A DNA stretch of 64,000 bases from Schmidtea polychroa (taxonomy: Eukaryota), in NCBI GenBank assembly GCA_044892525.1, contig CM097887.1:65224001-65288000 (forward strand), in the 5' to 3' direction. The notes under the pieces were generated by a model, which was given only the letters and a program-made list of their open reading frames with translations, did not search any database and was not told the origin of the DNA. Shown here one piece after another: positions 36,685 through 48,556 of this stretch; positions within the stretch are counted from its first letter, which is position 1, and every line of letters begins with the position of its first letter. A program made the translations under genes and the position numbers.

Positions 36685-36746
36685 TTGGGACACAATCATT
36701 AGTAGTTTTATTTCGAATTTTAGCATTGAACCCTATTTAATTTATT

Positions 36747-37157
36747 ATGTCAACTGTTGTAGTTAAAAAAACATCATTAACCTTAGTCGAATGTCCACCA
36801 CCTCTTTTGACAGTTAATGGGAAGCGTCGTGGTCGTAAACCTGGTGCAAACAGTACACTAGCTCAAAGAAGTGCTGCAAACTCAAGAGAAAGGTCTCGAA
36901 TGAGAGTTTTATCCAGTGCATTTATCGATTTGAAAAGCGCACTACCATGGGTGCCTAAAGATACGAAACTTTCCAAACTCGACACTCTTAAATTAGCAGC
37001 TGGATATATTGCTTATTTGAAAAGTGTTTTAGTCGACGATTTTTCAGGGACAACTTTACCACCTCCTTGGTCAGTGTATGATATTTATTCTCCATACATG
37101 GTGAACTCATCCAATAAGTGCCCAATACCAAGAGTAGGTGGTCTGATTTCATGTTAA
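36747..37157 (+). CDS. bHLH transcription factor, TCF21/musculin (MyoR) family
   Basis: [52 protein letters not shown] closely matches TCF21/[55 protein letters not shown]. The exact ortholog is not assignable. Confidence 0.9.
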
Positions 37158-40603: not shown

Positions 40604-41380
40604 TGTTGTACCCGGTAATTTAGCGGCTTTTGACATTCGGTTAGAAACAGGAACACTTTCATTAAAATATGTCATTGAATCCGCAAACTTTTCTTGCATA
40701 TCACACAAATATAATAGTGAATTTTCCAACGCAATTAATATCACAAATTTCAATATATTTAAAGACAGTTCAATTTTTATACACAAATTAGAAATTTTAT
40801 GGAAAAAGTTCATTTTTTTTGGAATATATAAACAAGCCGGGAAATCTTTTACAAAATTTCTACATATAAGTAAACAAAATTACAAAGAATACAAAATTAT
40901 GTCATTCGATAAAAAAAAACAGATTTTTAAAAATATGTAATTTAAAAAGCTTAACGATTTTATAACGTTCGCGTAAGAATTTCAAATAGTCAATTTCTAA
41001 TAATTAAATGCAGAATAAACAAATTTAGGTTTTATATTATTGTTAGGATTTGTTCCGTATTTCGCGAATTGTAATGGATGAGGGTGTTGGTCTATGAGAG
41101 CCAACACTAAAACTATTGGGAGCCGAATACAGTTTATCTTGATAATGATAACATGGCATCGAATTTGCTTTACTCTTCTGAGATTGATTAATAGAGCCTG
41201 ATTGATAAGTAGAAGTATTAGCTGATCGCACGAATTTTGATTGACTGTTATTGTGTTCTGTTTGGTCCTTAGTCGCTGGTGACCGCGCATTTATATATAT
41301 AATATAATATCGTATAATATAATATAATATAGTATAATAGGTATATAGATATTGTTAAGGCCGTGTAACGGCTCACTACA
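40604..41380 (-). repeat. 3' LTR (777 bp)
   Basis: By eye identical to 47504-48281 except an A9 versus A10 homopolymer; preceded on the minus strand by a short purine tract (GTGGGGCTGA). Confidence 0.97.
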
Positions 41381-41549
41381 TCAGCCCCACGGGAAGTCGC
41401 GGAGCGCACAGGAACTCAAGAATAGAGATTGATGAAAGATCTACTAGAAACAAGATGTAAGTCGAAAAGTAGTGACAATTTATCAAAGGTAGATAGTGTC
41501 TAAAAAGGAAATCGGTGATTGATGAATTAATTGATCACATGGAATAAAG

Positions 41550-44500
41550 TTAAGTGAATTTCAGCATCAGATGTGTCAAGTTTTCATTGGAATAGACTCT
41601 GGCAAGTCTTGGAGGTTTGGAAATGTCTTCCCCAATTTGGCGCACCCAAATCTTATCACTATGTTTCACATTTTTCGCGGTTCGCTGCTTGTCGGGTTTC
41701 GAAACAATTGAGCGAAGATTAAGTGGATTTGTTGTTGCTGAATGTGTATTCTCTGTAGCTAAATTTTCATCGCGTTGGTAGTTTGTGATCATGGTACGCG
41801 CGATTTCGTTTGAGTCCGTGGCCGGTTCTACTGAAAGGTTTTCGTTCGACGTAGTTGAAATGGGTTCGACTGAGACTTTCTCTAAATCAGAGTGAAGTTT
41901 GTCTTCGTCCACGTCATCAGAAATCATAAAAGCCGGTTTAAGTCGGCACAAATTTATATTTTGGGTAACACCGTTAATAACGATGTGAGCATTGTTATCC
42001 TTAATGTCGATCAATTTGTAAGGCCCCGAATATCTCGGTTTGAGACCTGAATCCGTAATATTACGAAGATAAACGTGAGTTGCGTCCTTGAAGGACTTTG
42101 GGACGTACGGTGTATATGAGGAAGCATAAGAAAACTGTGGGTTGCTATCGATCGAAAGAAAATGATCTCTAGCCATATCTAATTCCTCAAAGGTAGGAGC
42201 GTTATCGAAATCAACTAATTCGTTAGGTAACGATGTTGAAGAACCAAAAAGTAACTGTGCCGGTGTAGTTCCGGTAGTCCTGGAGGGTGTGTTACGCCAA
42301 CCAAGAAGGACAAAAGGTAAAGCTTTAGTCCAATTAAGTCTCGATGAAAGTATTCCAAGAGAGGTCTTCAAAGTACGGTGAAATCTTTCGATCATGCCGT
42401 TTGTCTGAGGATGGTAAGCAGTTGAACGGAGGTGTTGTATACCGAGCTTTTCAGTTAGCTGTTGAAATAACTGGGATTCAAACTGAGATCCCCTGTCTGT
42501 GATTATTGATTTCGGAACACCGTATCTAGAAATCCAATGTTGCAAAATTGAATTTGCTACAATTTCAGCAGAAATGTTTTTCAGAGGAATAACTTCAAAC
42601 CAACGCGTTTTCCGGTCAATCATAGTTAATAAGTAAGAAAAACCGCGATCAGAAGGCAAGGGGCCGACCAGGTCGATGTGAAGAATTTCGAACCTATTTC
42701 CGGTCGGATAGTGAATCATCTGTGGCTTAGTGTGTCTAGTTATCTTGTGTTGTTGACAACCGATGCACTGACTCACCCACAATTTAATATCGTGCCTCAT
42801 TGCTGGCCAAACGACATGTGAATGCAATAGGTTGAAGGTAGCCGACGAACCTGGATGATGTAAGTCGTGAATGGAGTGGAAAGCTAATTTCCGTAAGGAA
42901 TCGTGCAAAATCGGTCTTAAAACACCTGATAAAGACGAGTCAAAGTGTACTCCGTCCACGATTTCAAGCTTATCGCCAAAAGCAGCTAGATCTTTTGCCG
43001 AAGGTGGATTGTCGCGGAGGCACTGTACTGGAAAAATCGGATCGTGCAATATAGCGTTGGTACTGTGGGAAAGACAGTCTGCAATAACGTTTTCTTTGCC
43101 GGCAATGTGGCGTATTTCGCAAGAAAATTCTGAAATATAACTGATTTGCCTCTGTTGTCGTGGAGATGGGTCTTTCATTCCAAAAAGATAAGTTAGCGGT
43201 TTGTGGTCAGTGTAGATGACAAAAGGACGACCTTCAAGCAAGTGCTTGAAATGTTTGATTGAAAGATATATGCCTAAGAGTTCTCGGTCGAAAGCCGAAT
43301 ATTTCCGTTGAGCGGAAGAAAGTTTCTTTGAGAAAAACTCTAATGGTTCAGAAATGTCATTATGTAATTGGTGTAATACTGCACCAATAGCAACGTTTGA
43401 TGCATCAGTGGTCAGACTCCAAGGTAAATCAGCATTGGGAAAATGGAGTGTTTGAATTTTCGAAAGTGCCGACTTAGCGTTTTCAAATGCACTGAGTGTG
43501 GTATCGCTCCATGACACTAAAGACTTTTTTGGTTTTGAGACGAGACCTGAAAGAGGTGACAAAATGTCAGAAACCCCTGGAATAAAACGATGACAATAGT
43601 TTATCGTTCCCAAAAAACTTCTCAGTTGTGAAACTGTTTTTGGAAGTGGGAATTTGGCTATGGTATCTAGTCTATCCGGAGGAGGTCGGATTCCATCTGC
43701 GGAAATTAAATGTCCCAGGAAACGAGTCTCGTGTTGGAAGAAAGTACACTTATCGACGTTTACCTTAAGGTTGTATTGCCGAAGTGCTGTTAAAGTTCTT
43801 GTTAGATGGGTTTTATGCGTCTCTAAGTCAGGTGATCCGACTAAAATGTCGTCTATGTAAGGAACTGCGAAAGGTAGGTCCATTAAGACTTGATCAATAT
43901 ACCTTTGAAAGGTCTGTGCAGAATTCCGAAGGCCAAATGGCATATGCACGTACTCGAAAAGTCCGATCGGAGTTATTACGGCTGTTTTTTCTATGTCAGA
44001 CTCTCGCACGGGTATCTGATGGTACGCCTTCACGAGGTCGATTGTGGAGAAAATCTTTGCCTTTGAAAGACGGTGAAGGATATCACTAACAAGCGGCATG
44101 CTATAGGAATCATGTACCGTAATAGCATTAAGGTTTCGATAGTCGCCACACGGACGGAAAGTGCCATCTTTTTTTGGGACCAGGTGCAATGGCGATGACC
44201 ATGGAGATTTAGATCTCCGAATGGTACCCTCATGTAAGAGGTTAGTAAACTCGGAACGTACAAATTCGAGTTTTTCATTCGACAGTGGTCTAATTTTGCA
44301 TCTAACTGGTAAAGATGAAGTTGTGTCGATCGTGTGGCAGTAAAGCGGCTTCGAAACGTCACTTATTGGCGTGTTAAAACACCTATTAATAATATCTAAG
44401 GCTATTTTTGGGTGTTCGATTGTTATAACCGTTTTCGACGGAGTAGTATTTATATCGTCCGTTCCTATCCGTTGTGGATCTTCAAAGATGTTTGAGGGAA

Positions 44501-44915
44501 TAGTGCTGCAGTTTAATTGATTATTTATCCTTAAAGTGCGTCCGCGGCAATCTACGAGTAGTTCGTTAGCGCTTAAAAAATCAGATCCTAATATGGGGAT
44601 AATAACCTCTGCTATATAAAATTTCCACTCAAATAATTGGTCGGACAGAAATGGCAACGAGAAAGCAATTGTCTTTGAACCTAAAGTCTCAACAACACTA
44701 CCGTTTGCGGCCTTCAAAGAAATATCGACAGTGTTGAGGTCTGGAAGGTACTCTTTAGGTAAGATCGACAAGCTGGAACCAGTGTCGACAAGGAATTTTA
44801 GTCTGTTGGAAGGAGACGACAATATATTAAAAGCGTTTGACTCTGCTTCTATTAAAAATAAGTCTGATTTCGATGAAATTTTGCCTCCCACCTCTGCCGC
44901 TAGAAGTGGTGGCAT
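41550..44915 (-). CDS. pol: Pol polyprotein (aspartic protease, RT, RNase H, integrase)
   Basis: FLVDTGSS protease; RPCGDYRNLN, MPFGLRNS and YIDDIL RT; TTDASN...DRELLG...TDHKPL RNase H; HDLHHPG...CIGC, HIDLVGP, TDRGSQF and GMIERFHR integrase. Confidence 0.97.
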   Translation of the reverse strand: MPPLLAAEVGGKISSKSDLFLIEAESNAFNILSSPSNRLKFLVDTGSSLSILPKEYLPDLNTVDISLKAANGSVVETLGSKTIAFSLPFLSDQLFEWKFYIAEVIIPILGSDFLSANELLVDCRGRTLRINNQLNCSTIPSNIFEDPQRIGTDDINTTPSKTVITIEHPKIALDIINRCFNTPISDVSKPLYCHTIDTTSSLPVRCKIRPLSNEKLEFVRSEFTNLLHEGTIRRSKSPWSSPLHLVPKKDGTFRPCGDYRNLNAITVHDSYSMPLVSDILHRLSKAKIFSTIDLVKAYHQIPVRESDIEKTAVITPIGLFEYVHMPFGLRNSAQTFQRYIDQVLMDLPFAVPYIDDILVGSPDLETHKTHLTRTLTALRQYNLKVNVDKCTFFQHETRFLGHLISADGIRPPPDRLDTIAKFPLPKTVSQLRSFLGTINYCHRFIPGVSDILSPLSGLVSKPKKSLVSWSDTTLSAFENAKSALSKIQTLHFPNADLPWSLTTDASNVAIGAVLHQLHNDISEPLEFFSKKLSSAQRKYSAFDRELLGIYLSIKHFKHLLEGRPFVIYTDHKPLTYLFGMKDPSPRQQRQISYISEFSCEIRHIAGKENVIADCLSHSTNAILHDPIFPVQCLRDNPPSAKDLAAFGDKLEIVDGVHFDSSLSGVLRPILHDSLRKLAFHSIHDLHHPGSSATFNLLHSHVVWPAMRHDIKLWVSQCIGCQQHKITRHTKPQMIHYPTGNRFEILHIDLVGPLPSDRGFSYLLTMIDRKTRWFEVIPLKNISAEIVANSILQHWISRYGVPKSIITDRGSQFESQLFQQLTEKLGIQHLRSTAYHPQTNGMIERFHRTLKTSLGILSSRLNWTKALPFVLLGWRNTPSRTTGTTPAQLLFGSSTSLPNELVDFDNAPTFEELDMARDHFLSIDSNPQFSYASSYTPYVPKSFKDATHVYLRNITDSGLKPRYSGPYKLIDIKDNNAHIVINGVTQNINLCRLKPAFMISDDVDEDKLHSDLEKVSVEPISTTSNENLSVEPATDSNEIARTMITNYQRDENLATENTHSATTNPLNLRSIVSKPDKQRTAKNVKHSDKIWVRQIGEDISKPPRLARVYSNENLTHLMLKFT

Positions 44916-47713
44916 TATAAGTTTTTTTGATTGCTTGCTTTAGGTTTTGTGTAATTGGAGCAGCCTTCGAAGCATTTTAAGGCTTTATCTCCAAACCTGT
45001 CGTGGTATATGCACTTGTCCAGTATCTGACAGGATGGTGCTTTATCTCGCCAATTGCAACCTAGATGGCAGAACCGTGCCTTGTTACGAAACTTAAAATG
45101 GAAACGGCACAGGTTCCTGGTTGCAGGGGAAGGTGAACGTTGACGAGTATTTTGCACAAAGTGTGATTTTTGGGCATATTGCCTGTCGTCATTTGTCCGC
45201 CTGGTGGACATGCTATTCTCAAGCTCGCTGATGCGTTTAGTGAGACCTGTAATAGCGCAAAGTAAGGCTTCTTCGGTCGAAGGTTTTAAAGAAGAAGAAG
45301 AAGGTAAAATTTCGGGGTTAGTGCTGCTACTTAACTGCACAGAGCAAGTTGGTTGCGGACCAAGTGGCACGACTTCGTTAATCTTGTCGGCCATCTTTGC
45401 TAGCTCTACCACGTCTGCTGTTGACGAAAGCGCTAAAATTTGTTGTGCGTGTGGCGGTAAAGCAGACAGAAAAAATTGCCTCAAGAGTTTTTGATCCGCC
45501 GCAGCCTCCGGGTGTATTTGCGTTAGTTCCGCCATAGCGTGTTGCAAGAACTGTGATGGTTTTCTGCTGCCCAAAGTTTGCGTCTTAAAGTATTTAGTGA
45601 AGACGGCAGCTGTAGGTTCCTTAAAAATATCGAGGATTGCCGTACGCAATTCTTCATATGGGTTTTTTACGCTAGTAGGCGAAGTGCGAAGGATCACGGA
45701 CGAAAGTTTACTTAATATCGTCGGCGGAATCAACGGCAAGATGCGACAGTATTTGTCTCGTGAACTGGTTACCTCGATTCCCTCGAGTGCTAGTTCGGTA
45801 GCTATCAGCCAAGTAAGTGGAGAGTTATTCTCATCCAAAAAATATTGACATAGGTACGTTGATCGCTGGTTGTTGGACCTACGTTTATGTTTTGCCTGTT
45901 TGGGGTTGCTGCCTGAGTCATTCTCCGAATCGGAGGAACCGCCAGAAAGTGGCAACAAGCAATGAATGACGCTGTATGGTGTCACTCCATAGTCGCCCAA
46001 GGTACGACTGTCGGAAAGGATGTTGCCATTATACGACAAGAGAAAACGGCATTTGTGATTTGTCAATATGCTGTAATTTTTAGAAAGACCTCTAATTGTA
46101 GTGTCTGTGTCAACTGAAACGGTTTGTGTCTTATTTGTTACAGGGTTTTCTATTAATATTTGGAACTTTTTGGGCCCCGGTGCGGCGCTACCCTCTCGTG
46201 TGGGCTGATGCTTATTTAAATAATTTATTATAATTTTATATATGATATTAATAATAATATAAATCAATAATAATATAGTATAATTTAATAATAATATAAT
46301 AATATAATTTAGAGGTAATCGATCTAAGGTACCTGGCGGTGCTGACACGGGCATTGCTTGATTGAGTCTCGATTCGCTGGGAGACGGTTTATTATCCTGA
46401 ATAAATGGCTGTCCCGGTGCACGAGAGTTTAATGTGAAAAAATCATTATTCTGTTGCATTAAGAATTCATTTGGATTTGGTCGAAGCATGATGCGTTGTG
46501 GGGCTGTGTATAAGACATCACTCGTTAGCAATTTGTTATTTGGTATATAATTATTGATCGGAGTCATTTTTTTACGATTTTCAACGGCAATCATCTCAGC
46601 CAATGCTTGCCGGGAAACATTAATCGAATCAAAATCTATATCGGCTGTATCTTTATATTTCTGATCGTAATGTGAATTCGGTTTCTCCGAGCCAAATATG
46701 CGATTTATATCCATTTCGTTTCGATCCTGATACTGACCGTAGTTAAGTACACCGTTGTTGTTTGCCTGTTGATTGATGTTGTGATCGTATGACTGATTAT
46801 TATTATTGTTATTCTTGATTGCGGCGTGGTTTTGAGAATTTAACTGGCAGAAACTTTCCAGCAGAGAATTCGACAAACCAACTGAATTCAAACTGTTCAT
46901 AAATGATTTCTGATCTGAAAGCCGTGACAAGGGAGATGTAGAATTCAGTGTACTGTGGAATTCAGTAATATCATTACCAGCTGAGCTATTGAAAGCACTG
47001 AATAGGGGAAATTCGGATTTAGTATCCGATGATTCAGATTGTAATTGAATACTTTTCTTGATAAATTTGAAAGACGATTTATTTATCGGGTCAGCAATTT
47101 GAAATTGACCATTTGGAATATGATTATTATCTGTGATATTTGCAGGGGTCGAAATGGAATCACCTAGAACGACTACGGGATCCAAAGAATCACGATCTGG
47201 AATTGTCTGAGTTAATTTGATATACTCTTCTCGATTCGATGACAAAAAACAGGAATGAGCAATTATCAATTGATCTATCAGCCTATCAATATCATGGGAT
47301 ATAGGATTAAATTTTGATGAAAGTTTTAATTCAGAAAATATTTTGGAAAGCATATGGAACATATTTTGACGTAATTCCGCTGTTCGTTTATGAGAAACTA
47401 ATATAGATTGTATTTCCTGTAATCTGGATTTAGCAATGATATTAGATAAATAAGTTTCTAATTGTTCAAATCTTGAACATTGTTCTGGCACTTCTGACAC
47501 CAATGTTGTACCCGGTAATTTAGCGGCTTTTGACATTCGGTTAGAAACAGGAACACTTTCATTAAAATATGTCATTGAATCCGCAAACTTTTCTTGCATA
47601 TCACACAAATATAATAGTGAATTTTCCAACGCAATTAATATCACAAATTTCAATATATTTAAAGACAGTTCAATTTTTATACACAAATTAGAAATTTTAT
47701 GGAAAAAGTTCAT
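44915..47713 (-). CDS. gag: Extended Gag ORF1: N-terminal extension, TM-like segment, ubiquitin-like domain, capsid, two CHCC motifs
   Basis: 932-codon ORF. The capsid-like region is NSPLTWL...KYCRILPLIP...NPYEELRTAI...LGSRKPSQFL...DVVELAKMAD. The Ubl spans residues 517-592. The true start codon is uncertain because the ORF opens inside the LTR. Confidence 0.9.
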   Translation of the reverse strand: MNFFHKISNLCIKIELSLNILKFVILIALENSLLYLCDMQEKFADSMTYFNESVPVSNRMSKAAKLPGTTLVSEVPEQCSRFEQLETYLSNIIAKSRLQEIQSILVSHKRTAELRQNMFHMLSKIFSELKLSSKFNPISHDIDRLIDQLIIAHSCFLSSNREEYIKLTQTIPDRDSLDPVVVLGDSISTPANITDNNHIPNGQFQIADPINKSSFKFIKKSIQLQSESSDTKSEFPLFSAFNSSAGNDITEFHSTLNSTSPLSRLSDQKSFMNSLNSVGLSNSLLESFCQLNSQNHAAIKNNNNNNQSYDHNINQQANNNGVLNYGQYQDRNEMDINRIFGSEKPNSHYDQKYKDTADIDFDSINVSRQALAEMIAVENRKKMTPINNYIPNNKLLTSDVLYTAPQRIMLRPNPNEFLMQQNNDFFTLNSRAPGQPFIQDNKPSPSESRLNQAMPVSAPPGTLDRLPLNYIIILLLNYTILLLIYIIINIIYKIIINYLNKHQPTREGSAAPGPKKFQILIENPVTNKTQTVSVDTDTTIRGLSKNYSILTNHKCRFLLSYNGNILSDSRTLGDYGVTPYSVIHCLLPLSGGSSDSENDSGSNPKQAKHKRRSNNQRSTYLCQYFLDENNSPLTWLIATELALEGIEVTSSRDKYCRILPLIPPTILSKLSSVILRTSPTSVKNPYEELRTAILDIFKEPTAAVFTKYFKTQTLGSRKPSQFLQHAMAELTQIHPEAAADQKLLRQFFLSALPPHAQQILALSSTADVVELAKMADKINEVVPLGPQPTCSVQLSSSTNPEILPSSSSLKPSTEEALLCAITGLTKRISELENSMSTRRTNDDRQYAQKSHFVQNTRQRSPSPATRNLCRFHFKFRNKARFCHLGCNWRDKAPSCQILDKCIYHDRFGDKALKCFEGCSNYTKPKASNQKNL
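47489..47502 (-). promoter_or_regulatory. Primer-binding site (tRNA-Leu)
   Basis: TGGTGTCAGAAGTG lies one nt after the 5' LTR and is complementary to the tRNA-Leu 3' end ...CACUUCUGACACCA. Confidence 0.85.
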
Positions 47714-48281
47714 TTTTTTTGGAATATATAAACAAGCCGGGAAATCTTTTACAAAATTTCTACATATAAGTAAACAAAATTACAAAGAATACAAAATTAT
47801 GTCATTCGATAAAAAAAAAACAGATTTTTAAAAATATGTAATTTAAAAAGCTTAACGATTTTATAACGTTCGCGTAAGAATTTCAAATAGTCAATTTCTA
47901 ATAATTAAATGCAGAATAAACAAATTTAGGTTTTATATTATTGTTAGGATTTGTTCCGTATTTCGCGAATTGTAATGGATGAGGGTGTTGGTCTATGAGA
48001 GCCAACACTAAAACTATTGGGAGCCGAATACAGTTTATCTTGATAATGATAACATGGCATCGAATTTGCTTTACTCTTCTGAGATTGATTAATAGAGCCT
48101 GATTGATAAGTAGAAGTATTAGCTGATCGCACGAATTTTGATTGACTGTTATTGTGTTCTGTTTGGTCCTTAGTCGCTGGTGACCGCGCATTTATATATA
48201 TAATATAATATCGTATAATATAATATAATATAGTATAATAGGTATATAGATATTGTTAAGGCCGTGTAACGGCTCACTACA
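47504..48281 (-). repeat. 5' LTR (778 bp)
   Basis: Direct repeat of 40604-41380, adjacent to the PBS. Confidence 0.97.
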
Positions 48282-48556
48282 ATATGTAAACCAAAAAAGT
48301 GAAAAAACACCTGCTATATTATTTCTTAAGCGTTATACGGTTCGAAATTTTATAATCTTCCGGGTTCGAGGTTGTGGGAGTTGGCAACCCTAGTATTTAT
48401 GCAAATTTTCTGTAGATCATTTCTACTTTAATATCCCTCATTTAGGAGTTAAACTAATACGGCATCAAAATCTTTAGTAATAAATCATTATCTACTTTAC
48501 GCTTATAGAATATTACAAATGTTAGGTTCGTATAATGGGACATGAGTCATATGAGT

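Follow-up and report, generated by a model that had tools for sequence, protein, structure and literature searches.

What does a long, hydrophobic, extremely AT-rich segment do in the middle of a retrotransposon Gag precursor? The question is raised by a 64,000-nucleotide stretch of the Schmidtea polychroa genome (assembly GCA_044892525.1, contig CM097887.1, positions 65,224,001 to 65,288,000; referred to here as the window), which on its minus strand carries a 7.7-kb Ty3/gypsy retrotransposon with two long terminal repeats (LTRs) and a 5-bp target duplication, ATATG. Its first open reading frame (ORF1, 44915..47779, 954 codons from stop to stop; all features of the element lie on the minus strand) encodes in succession a leader, an AT-rich tract, a ubiquitin-like domain (Ubl) ending in Gly-Gly (GG) and Gag. 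The tract (46217..46318, residues 488-521) is 102 nt long, contains 94% A+T and, in the frame of ORF1, encodes LPLNYIIILLLNYTILLLIYIIINIIYKIIINYL, while stops are present in all five other frames. A first-pass annotation of the sequence proposed that this segment may be a membrane anchor tethering the Gag precursor.

The explanation favored here, with a probability of roughly 0.6, is that the tract belongs to a leader that is translated in frame and composed of scraps of host mRNA, that its hydrophobic core is a recent and incidental product, and that host deubiquitinases free Gag at the Ubl-GG. The feature that stands out more sharply than the anchor is a conserved ubiquitin-GG before the capsid in many diverged gypsy Gags, preceded by leaders of host coding scraps.

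A ubiquitin-like domain ahead of the capsid

The Ubl (45938..46162) matches the Pfam ubiquitin family over residues 541-609 (E 6e-9) and ends in LLPLSGG at residue 614. It starts 17 residues downstream of the tract, the spacing given in the first-pass annotation, and it is followed by DUF7041-headed helical domains of the Gag capsid type (45350..45850; Pfam E 2e-5, below the cut-off; all-helical in the structure model), i.e., the order of hydrophobic segment, Ubl-GG and capsid proposed there is found in one frame. The structure model, obtained with a 33-row alignment (mean predicted local distance difference test score, pLDDT, of 85), comprises a 34-residue helix, a beta-grasp, a disordered linker past the GG and helical Gag domains. 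The modelled Ubl (pLDDT 90-96) superimposes on ISG15 and ubiquitin in Foldseek with a root-mean-square deviation of 1-2 Å (1.3 Å over 81 columns) and is about 30% identical to ubiquitin, while pLDDT is low at model positions 138-162, after the GG; the capsid fold is without structural confirmation because ubiquitins filled the top of the Foldseek list. The two glycines, G137-G138 of the model, are conserved in at least 90% of the 33 aligned rows. Of the traits expected of a cleavable fusion, the beta-grasp fold, a conserved C-terminal Gly-Gly and a flexible linker are present.

Relatives were found by an exhaustive, profile-free protein search with residues 477-810 as the query; a word-indexed search with ORF1 region 470-810 returned none of 5166 candidates, and a shorter query gave four Gag proteins. 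The capsid was matched by 82 of 153 stored proteins, with relatives at 25-48% capsid identity, and 37 of the 82 have at least 60 residues ahead of the capsid, with start sites taken from machine gene calls. The motif [LIV]xGG is found 14-48 residues ahead of the capsid in 29 of these 37 relatives and in 7 of 299 control windows, a comparison in which GG-bearing matches are enriched because the query held the Ubl. A Pfam ubiquitin match (E <= 0.0013) was obtained for 10 of 31 Gag-type proteins scanned. The pestivirus-like logic of the first-pass annotation, i.e., a GG placed before the protein to be released, gains support from the recurrence of this motif.

Comparison of copies separates the parts of ORF1. 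The Ubl shows 11 synonymous and 7 replacement differences over 55 codons (ratio of replacement to synonymous differences per site, pN/pS, about 0.2), the capsid 11 and 0 over 102 codons (no amino-acid change across 11-14 synonymous differences), and leader pieces 1 and 8, 0-1 and 3-5, and, for a CNOT4-like piece described below, 6 and 10; pN/pS is quoted from three-copy rows, while two-copy rows rest partly on single-copy sites. By these counts the Ubl is judged to be under purifying selection, the capsid more so, and the leader pieces under little amino-acid constraint. ORF1 residues 476-749 contain no methionine, i.e., the span from the tract to mid-capsid is Met-free, and since the Ubl and capsid are under selection, ribosomes would arrive from upstream, where the frame is open already within the 5' LTR and offers methionines at 47599, 47575 and 47536. 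The tract is thus probably translated.

The copies were counted after duplicate loci had been dropped, which left 49 distinct ones (34 young and 15 older, with L042 and L043 perhaps representing a single locus present in duplicate in the assembly). Between fixed anchors the tract measures 114, 117, 120, 123, 126, 132 or 135 nt in 48 of the 49, a test that is weaker than it looks because slippage of triplet-periodic DNA proceeds in steps of three even in the absence of selection; it measures 133 nt in one decayed copy, and two copies have a stop inside it. The Ubl-Gag part of 19 older copies contains 49 indels, of which 27 cause a frameshift. Variable length with frameshifts among copies had been named beforehand as a finding that would count against an anchor: the length does vary, yet in multiples of three in all copies but the decayed one.

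The same observations bear on the possibility that the leader and tract are untranslated, with Gag made from a non-AUG codon or by internal entry close to the Ubl and the open frame being a relic of captured exons. The weak amino-acid constraint, two frameshifts shared among 30 young copies and the natural openness of the captured pieces would agree with it; however, one frame from LTR to Ubl was kept through every subfamily-level rearrangement, the leader carries five shared indels of 3n length, and a GG release site would be purposeless without a leader. Translation starting downstream of the tract is for these reasons highly improbable.

Ancestry of the tract and the leader

The first-pass annotation is confirmed in that the tract holds a hydrophobic segment open in the ORF1 frame. 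Its core (46250..46306, residues 492-510), a recent product of local duplication, has a KD19 of 2.67, where KD19 denotes the best 19-residue Kyte-Doolittle window. Only 2.7-3.1% of 20,000 shuffles of the tract have an open frame and the openness is therefore above chance. Among the open shuffles, 53% (mononucleotide) or 66% (dinucleotide) reach a KD19 of at least 1.6, and the other stretches of at least 90% AT in the window gave a similar picture (72 frames, six open, KD19 at least 1.6 in five of the six). The membrane look of the tract is, for the most part, compositional, and caution is warranted generally, as open frames at 90% A+T tend to score as transmembrane. The structure model renders the tract as one long helix of 34 residues, with a helix confidence that is uninformative on membranes.

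The tract also has a traceable origin. Its 3' half and the residues that follow (46196..46265) descend from an LRRC47-like helix of a host gene, L097 (LRR match in Pfam; LRRC47 in the atlas, 0.96), which shares 90% identity with element copy L077 over 105 nt and 79% identity with copy L072 over 63 nt. The helix can be followed from the host (LINDNLYKAIIEYLKK) through L077 (IIIDNLYKTIIKYLKK) and L072 (TIIDIIYKTIIKYLNK) to the window (IIINIIYKIIINYLNK). On the other side lies a TRIP12/UFD4-like exon piece (46307..46363; 89% nucleotide identity to host gene L071) that contains a CAG|GT site at 46332; L071 itself is identified by a WWE match (E 9e-4, below the Pfam cut-off) and by TRIP12 as top match in the atlas (score 0.90, 167 shared features). 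In more diverged copies, about 820 extra bases separate this piece from the tract's 3' half, and the last part of them is a fragment of L075, a host BTB-Kelch gene. After this intervening DNA was lost, short duplications built NYTIILLLIY, and the youngest group adds a second LNYIIILL unit. Judged from these copies, the core grew by AT-rich duplication adjoining the captured TRIP12-like exon. A plain (ATT)n microsatellite and an intron remnant were considered as sources of the tract; both are contradicted by L097 in the host and by the older copies.

Along this series KD19 starts at 0.03 for the host helix and takes values of 0.3-1.2 across six diverged copies (scored over the 45 residues ahead of the linker), 1.6-2.7 in the 15 older copies and 2.5-2.7 in the 34 young ones, while A+T climbs from 82% to 95%. 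The value of 1.89 for L080 in a wider window owes nothing to the tract and stems from unrelated sequence past the junction, L074 and L053 carry frameshifts at the tract and were read out of frame, and L052 has no scorable tract. In a DNA tree of Ubl-Gag from 29 copies, those bearing the core form one clade (96/87) within which the youngest are nested (96/88), and the six core-less copies fall outside; LLPLSGG is intact in three of these six. Among distant relatives with leaders of at least 40 residues ahead of the Ubl (n = 21), a KD19 of at least 2.0 within 80 residues of the Ubl is seen in one. Hydrophobicity at this place is thus conserved in 0 of 6 diverged copies and 1 of 21 distant relatives, and the idea of a conserved, ancestral anchor is not supported; the 3' half, moreover, derives from a soluble host leucine-rich-repeat protein.

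An anchor newly selected in the two younger subfamilies is a different proposal, in which the core would act as an internal signal-anchor that takes the element RNA to the endoplasmic reticulum (ER), and GG cleavage would free Gag to seed assembly. It is consistent with the KD19 value together with a summed insertion score of -3.5 kcal/mol (a crude estimate), with a bias of basic residues (2 on the C-terminal side of the core versus net 0 on the other) that fits a cytosolic Ubl and capsid, and with a stepwise rise of hydrophobicity on the tree and the 34-residue model helix. However, a long N-terminal stretch without a signal peptide usually sends the C-terminus to the lumen, and a leader of about 430 residues lacking such a peptide would place the Ubl and capsid inside the ER lumen, out of reach of cytosolic deubiquitinases. 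The core is, furthermore, missing at the same place in the diverged copies and in 20 of 21 distant relatives, and open frames of like composition mostly look membrane-like. A precedent exists in Ty1, whose RNA is found on ribosomes bound by the signal-recognition particle (SRP) and whose ER targeting nucleates assembly sites (PMC3945221). Taken together, a selected anchor appears unlikely.

The rest of the leader has a similar ancestry: sequence comparison shows a mosaic whose pieces are host coding sequence, each kept in its native frame. A 23-nt piece of the TRIP12-like gene L071 is present without change at 47465..47487 (blastn), and a CNOT4-like exon piece in its native frame (46354..46955, residues 276-476) is 93% identical in nucleotides to host gene L031, which matches the CNOT4 RRM (PDB 2cpi, E 9e-9). 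An older subfamily has a different sequence in place of the CNOT4 piece and the same tract. Leaders of distant relatives contain unrelated domains, i.e., histone H2A, 5'-nucleotidase, cohesin SA, and CNOT1 with Rrp44.

Several further observations concern the captured material. The leaders of L034-L038 and L081 carry a Trp/Gly-rich low-complexity piece without a Pfam match where young copies have CNOT4, a piece of the older subfamily that, we presume, recalls GW182. The older copy at L034:1123-2967 (minus strand) has a leader with a glutaredoxin piece and several 7tm_2 adhesion-receptor helices that share one frame with the Ubl and Gag. The distant relative P0008 (42% capsid identity) also has an LRRC47-like leader piece, which points to either a shared old capture or repeated capture. 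Leader pieces 46967-47160 and 46182-46216 also match long non-element contigs; the donor of the latter, a 35-nt piece present in a 1216-nt non-element contig, was not found by genome search. Three of the four donors (CNOT4-like L031, TRIP12-like L071 and BTB-Kelch L075) are ubiquitin-ligase components, the fourth being L097; this may be due to chance, or to a bias in co-packaging or retention.

Transcripts across the tract

The first-pass annotation pointed out that excision from the donor at 46332 to the acceptor at 46211 or 46205 would remove 122 or 128 nt and break the frame. These nearest-donor pairs are borne out; weak in-frame pairs had been overlooked, i.e., 46332-46195 (138 nt, with a GAG acceptor) and 46348 combined with 46211, 46205, 46193 or 46166. 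Retention of the tract was examined in assembled contigs from runs X1-X3, which are RNA by guess only. No splice joint across the tract was found in these contigs, and one X1 contig spans the whole tract, reaching 35 and 43 bases beyond its ends. Contig depths in X1 (25 for the tract, 162 directly upstream and 63 for the Ubl) cannot rank parts of the gene and carry no weight here, and the same applies to the lack of tract coverage in X2 and X3; a run with another organism label, X4, gave short low-complexity matches only. No genomic copy without the tract was found. Full-length element RNA would in any case be unspliced.

Long loose ends begin at the CAG|GT site, at 46332 in X1 and at 46331 in X2, i.e., in two studies and with two different outside partners. 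No joint from either position to anywhere in 41300-48300 was found, the junction was not found in the genome assembly, and genome pattern searches for non-element neighbors gave no match except one element variant. The GT at 46332 is probably used as a cryptic donor to outside exons; it would then divert transcripts, likely into chimeric host transcripts, without local removal of the tract. Because the 57 nt before the tract derive from L071, this "donor" lies inside a host coding exon.

It may be asked whether the tract acts at the RNA level, i.e., whether its intron-like A+T richness activates the cryptic site such that many transcripts are spliced out, unspliced RNA alone yields Gag and genomes, and the peptide is a side effect. 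The loose ends and the existence of weak in-frame pairs speak for such a role. Against it stand the lack of a joint over the tract alone in runs that are contigs and RNA by guess, the failure to find a tract-deleted genomic copy, which reverse transcription of locally spliced RNA would leave, the position of the GT in a captured coding exon, and the kept frame, which would not be expected of an intron. An RNA-level function is therefore considered rather improbable, less so than an untranslated leader and more so than a selected anchor.

Probable release of Gag and comparison with known systems

In the favored explanation, ORF1 is open from the LTR via the captured host pieces, the tract and the Ubl into Gag. 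Translation would begin at a methionine in or near the LTR and continue through the tract, and a cut after the GG, as suggested by ubiquitin biology, would probably occur during or just after synthesis and define a fixed Gag N-terminus; release by host deubiquitinases is likely. The leader would then have only to stay free of stops, and for this reason template switches onto native-frame host mRNAs would be tolerated, as would in-frame captures, weak amino-acid constraint and hydrophobic drift. The copy series leads from the soluble LRRC47-like helix through higher A+T to duplication into an Ile/Leu/Tyr run, with the direction suggested by the tree. The core would be neutral; earlier forms of the element did not require it for replication, and the odds that the young segment binds SRP or inserts into a membrane are about even.

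A number of observations weigh against this explanation, in addition to the limits stated above for the GG count and for the length test. Hydrophobicity rises along the lineage to its maximum in the group that is both youngest and most numerous, a pattern also expected if an anchor were being selected, and the observed KD19 is matched by only 4-10% of open shuffles. The root of the copy tree is a midpoint with two long basal branches and a single lineage, such that the order is rough and the cause is not shown. A window with KD19 of at least 2.0 occurs somewhere in the leader of 7 of 21 distant relatives, and L034 has true receptor helices. LPLSGG differs from the LRLRGG of ubiquitin, two leader frameshifts are each common to 2 of 30 young copies, and the loose ends at 46332 and 46331 come from two studies.

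A bolder reading joins both themes: this gypsy lineage would use the Ubl-GG to run a disposable leader as an evolutionary workbench, in which microsatellite-like slippage would have turned a soluble host helix into a functional ER signal-anchor that was then selected for parking Gag synthesis on membranes, with all intermediates in one genome. This reading is unlikely.

The 5' LTR (47504..48281) and the 3' LTR (40604..41380) agree at all 777 aligned bases, with one gap, and a primer-binding-site-like TGG... motif (47489..47502) adjoins the former and is read through by ORF1. The pol frame (41550..44939) encodes protease (a weak match, E 0.02), reverse transcriptase, RNase H and integrase, in this order, and overlaps the 3' end of ORF1, lying in its -1 frame; the heptamer A AAA AAC at 44927-44921, directly ahead of the ORF1 stop, is likely the frameshift site. 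No env was found in the 7.7-kb element. From the Gag type, we take the CsRn1 clade as a candidate affiliation. In the host genome searched (781 Mb, four large contigs), 40 scored matches of 220 candidates have 98-100% identity, and the family is on these grounds young and numerous.

Elsewhere in the window, an exon of a bHLH gene (36741-37157, plus strand; Pfam HLH E 3.5e-15) lies about 3.4 kb from the 3' LTR. The GC-rich segment 50330-51087 (minus strand) has overlapping open reading frames of 101-145 codons without a clear Pfam match and is probably a fragment of another mobile element. Two inverted dispersed-repeat pairs are spaced 13-15 kb apart (18221-18529/31933-32093 and 14059-14266/29285-29515).

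A published description of a Ubl-GG ahead of a gypsy capsid was not found in a literature search whose coverage leaves absence from print unproven; a word search gave none in parts of PMC6338049, PMC9741609 and PMC13524379. If deubiquitinases do release Gag, the element would combine processing that is independent of its own protease with a standing exon-shuffling engine. In addition, the copy series offers a dated, stepwise rise of a membrane-like helix from AT-rich coding DNA, while de novo gene birth is usually argued statistically.

Host deubiquitinases cut linear ubiquitin-GG fusions such as polyubiquitin precursors and the fusions of ubiquitin with ribosomal proteins. In these, a near-invariant ubiquitin occupies the N-terminus, whereas the Ubl of the element is internal and ends in LPLSGG. 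In cytopathogenic bovine viral diarrhea virus, a host ubiquitin-like insert is likewise found in frame ahead of a viral protein, and mosaic inserts arise by repeated non-homologous recombination; however, these inserts (PMC13517609) are sporadic, belong to an RNA virus and precede NS3, whereas here the Ubl is fixed, diverged and lineage-wide, precedes the capsid and follows an unconserved helix. The giant planarian gypsy element Burro/GYPSM1 also has host-like domains in ORF1, including a Ubi2/SUMO-like one, but its Gag is N-terminal with the Ubl downstream, env lies between Gag and Pol, and the product has about 5,000 residues (PMC6431247); the present element has neither a leading Gag, nor an env in that position, nor a giant reading frame, and instead has a Ubl-GG ahead of the capsid within 7.7 kb. 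Yeast Ty1 is, similarly, an env-less LTR element in which ER-targeted translation of Gag seeds assembly (PMC3945221), but it is a copia element whose Gag transits the ER lumen, and the abstract of that study mentions neither a Ubl nor a captured leader.

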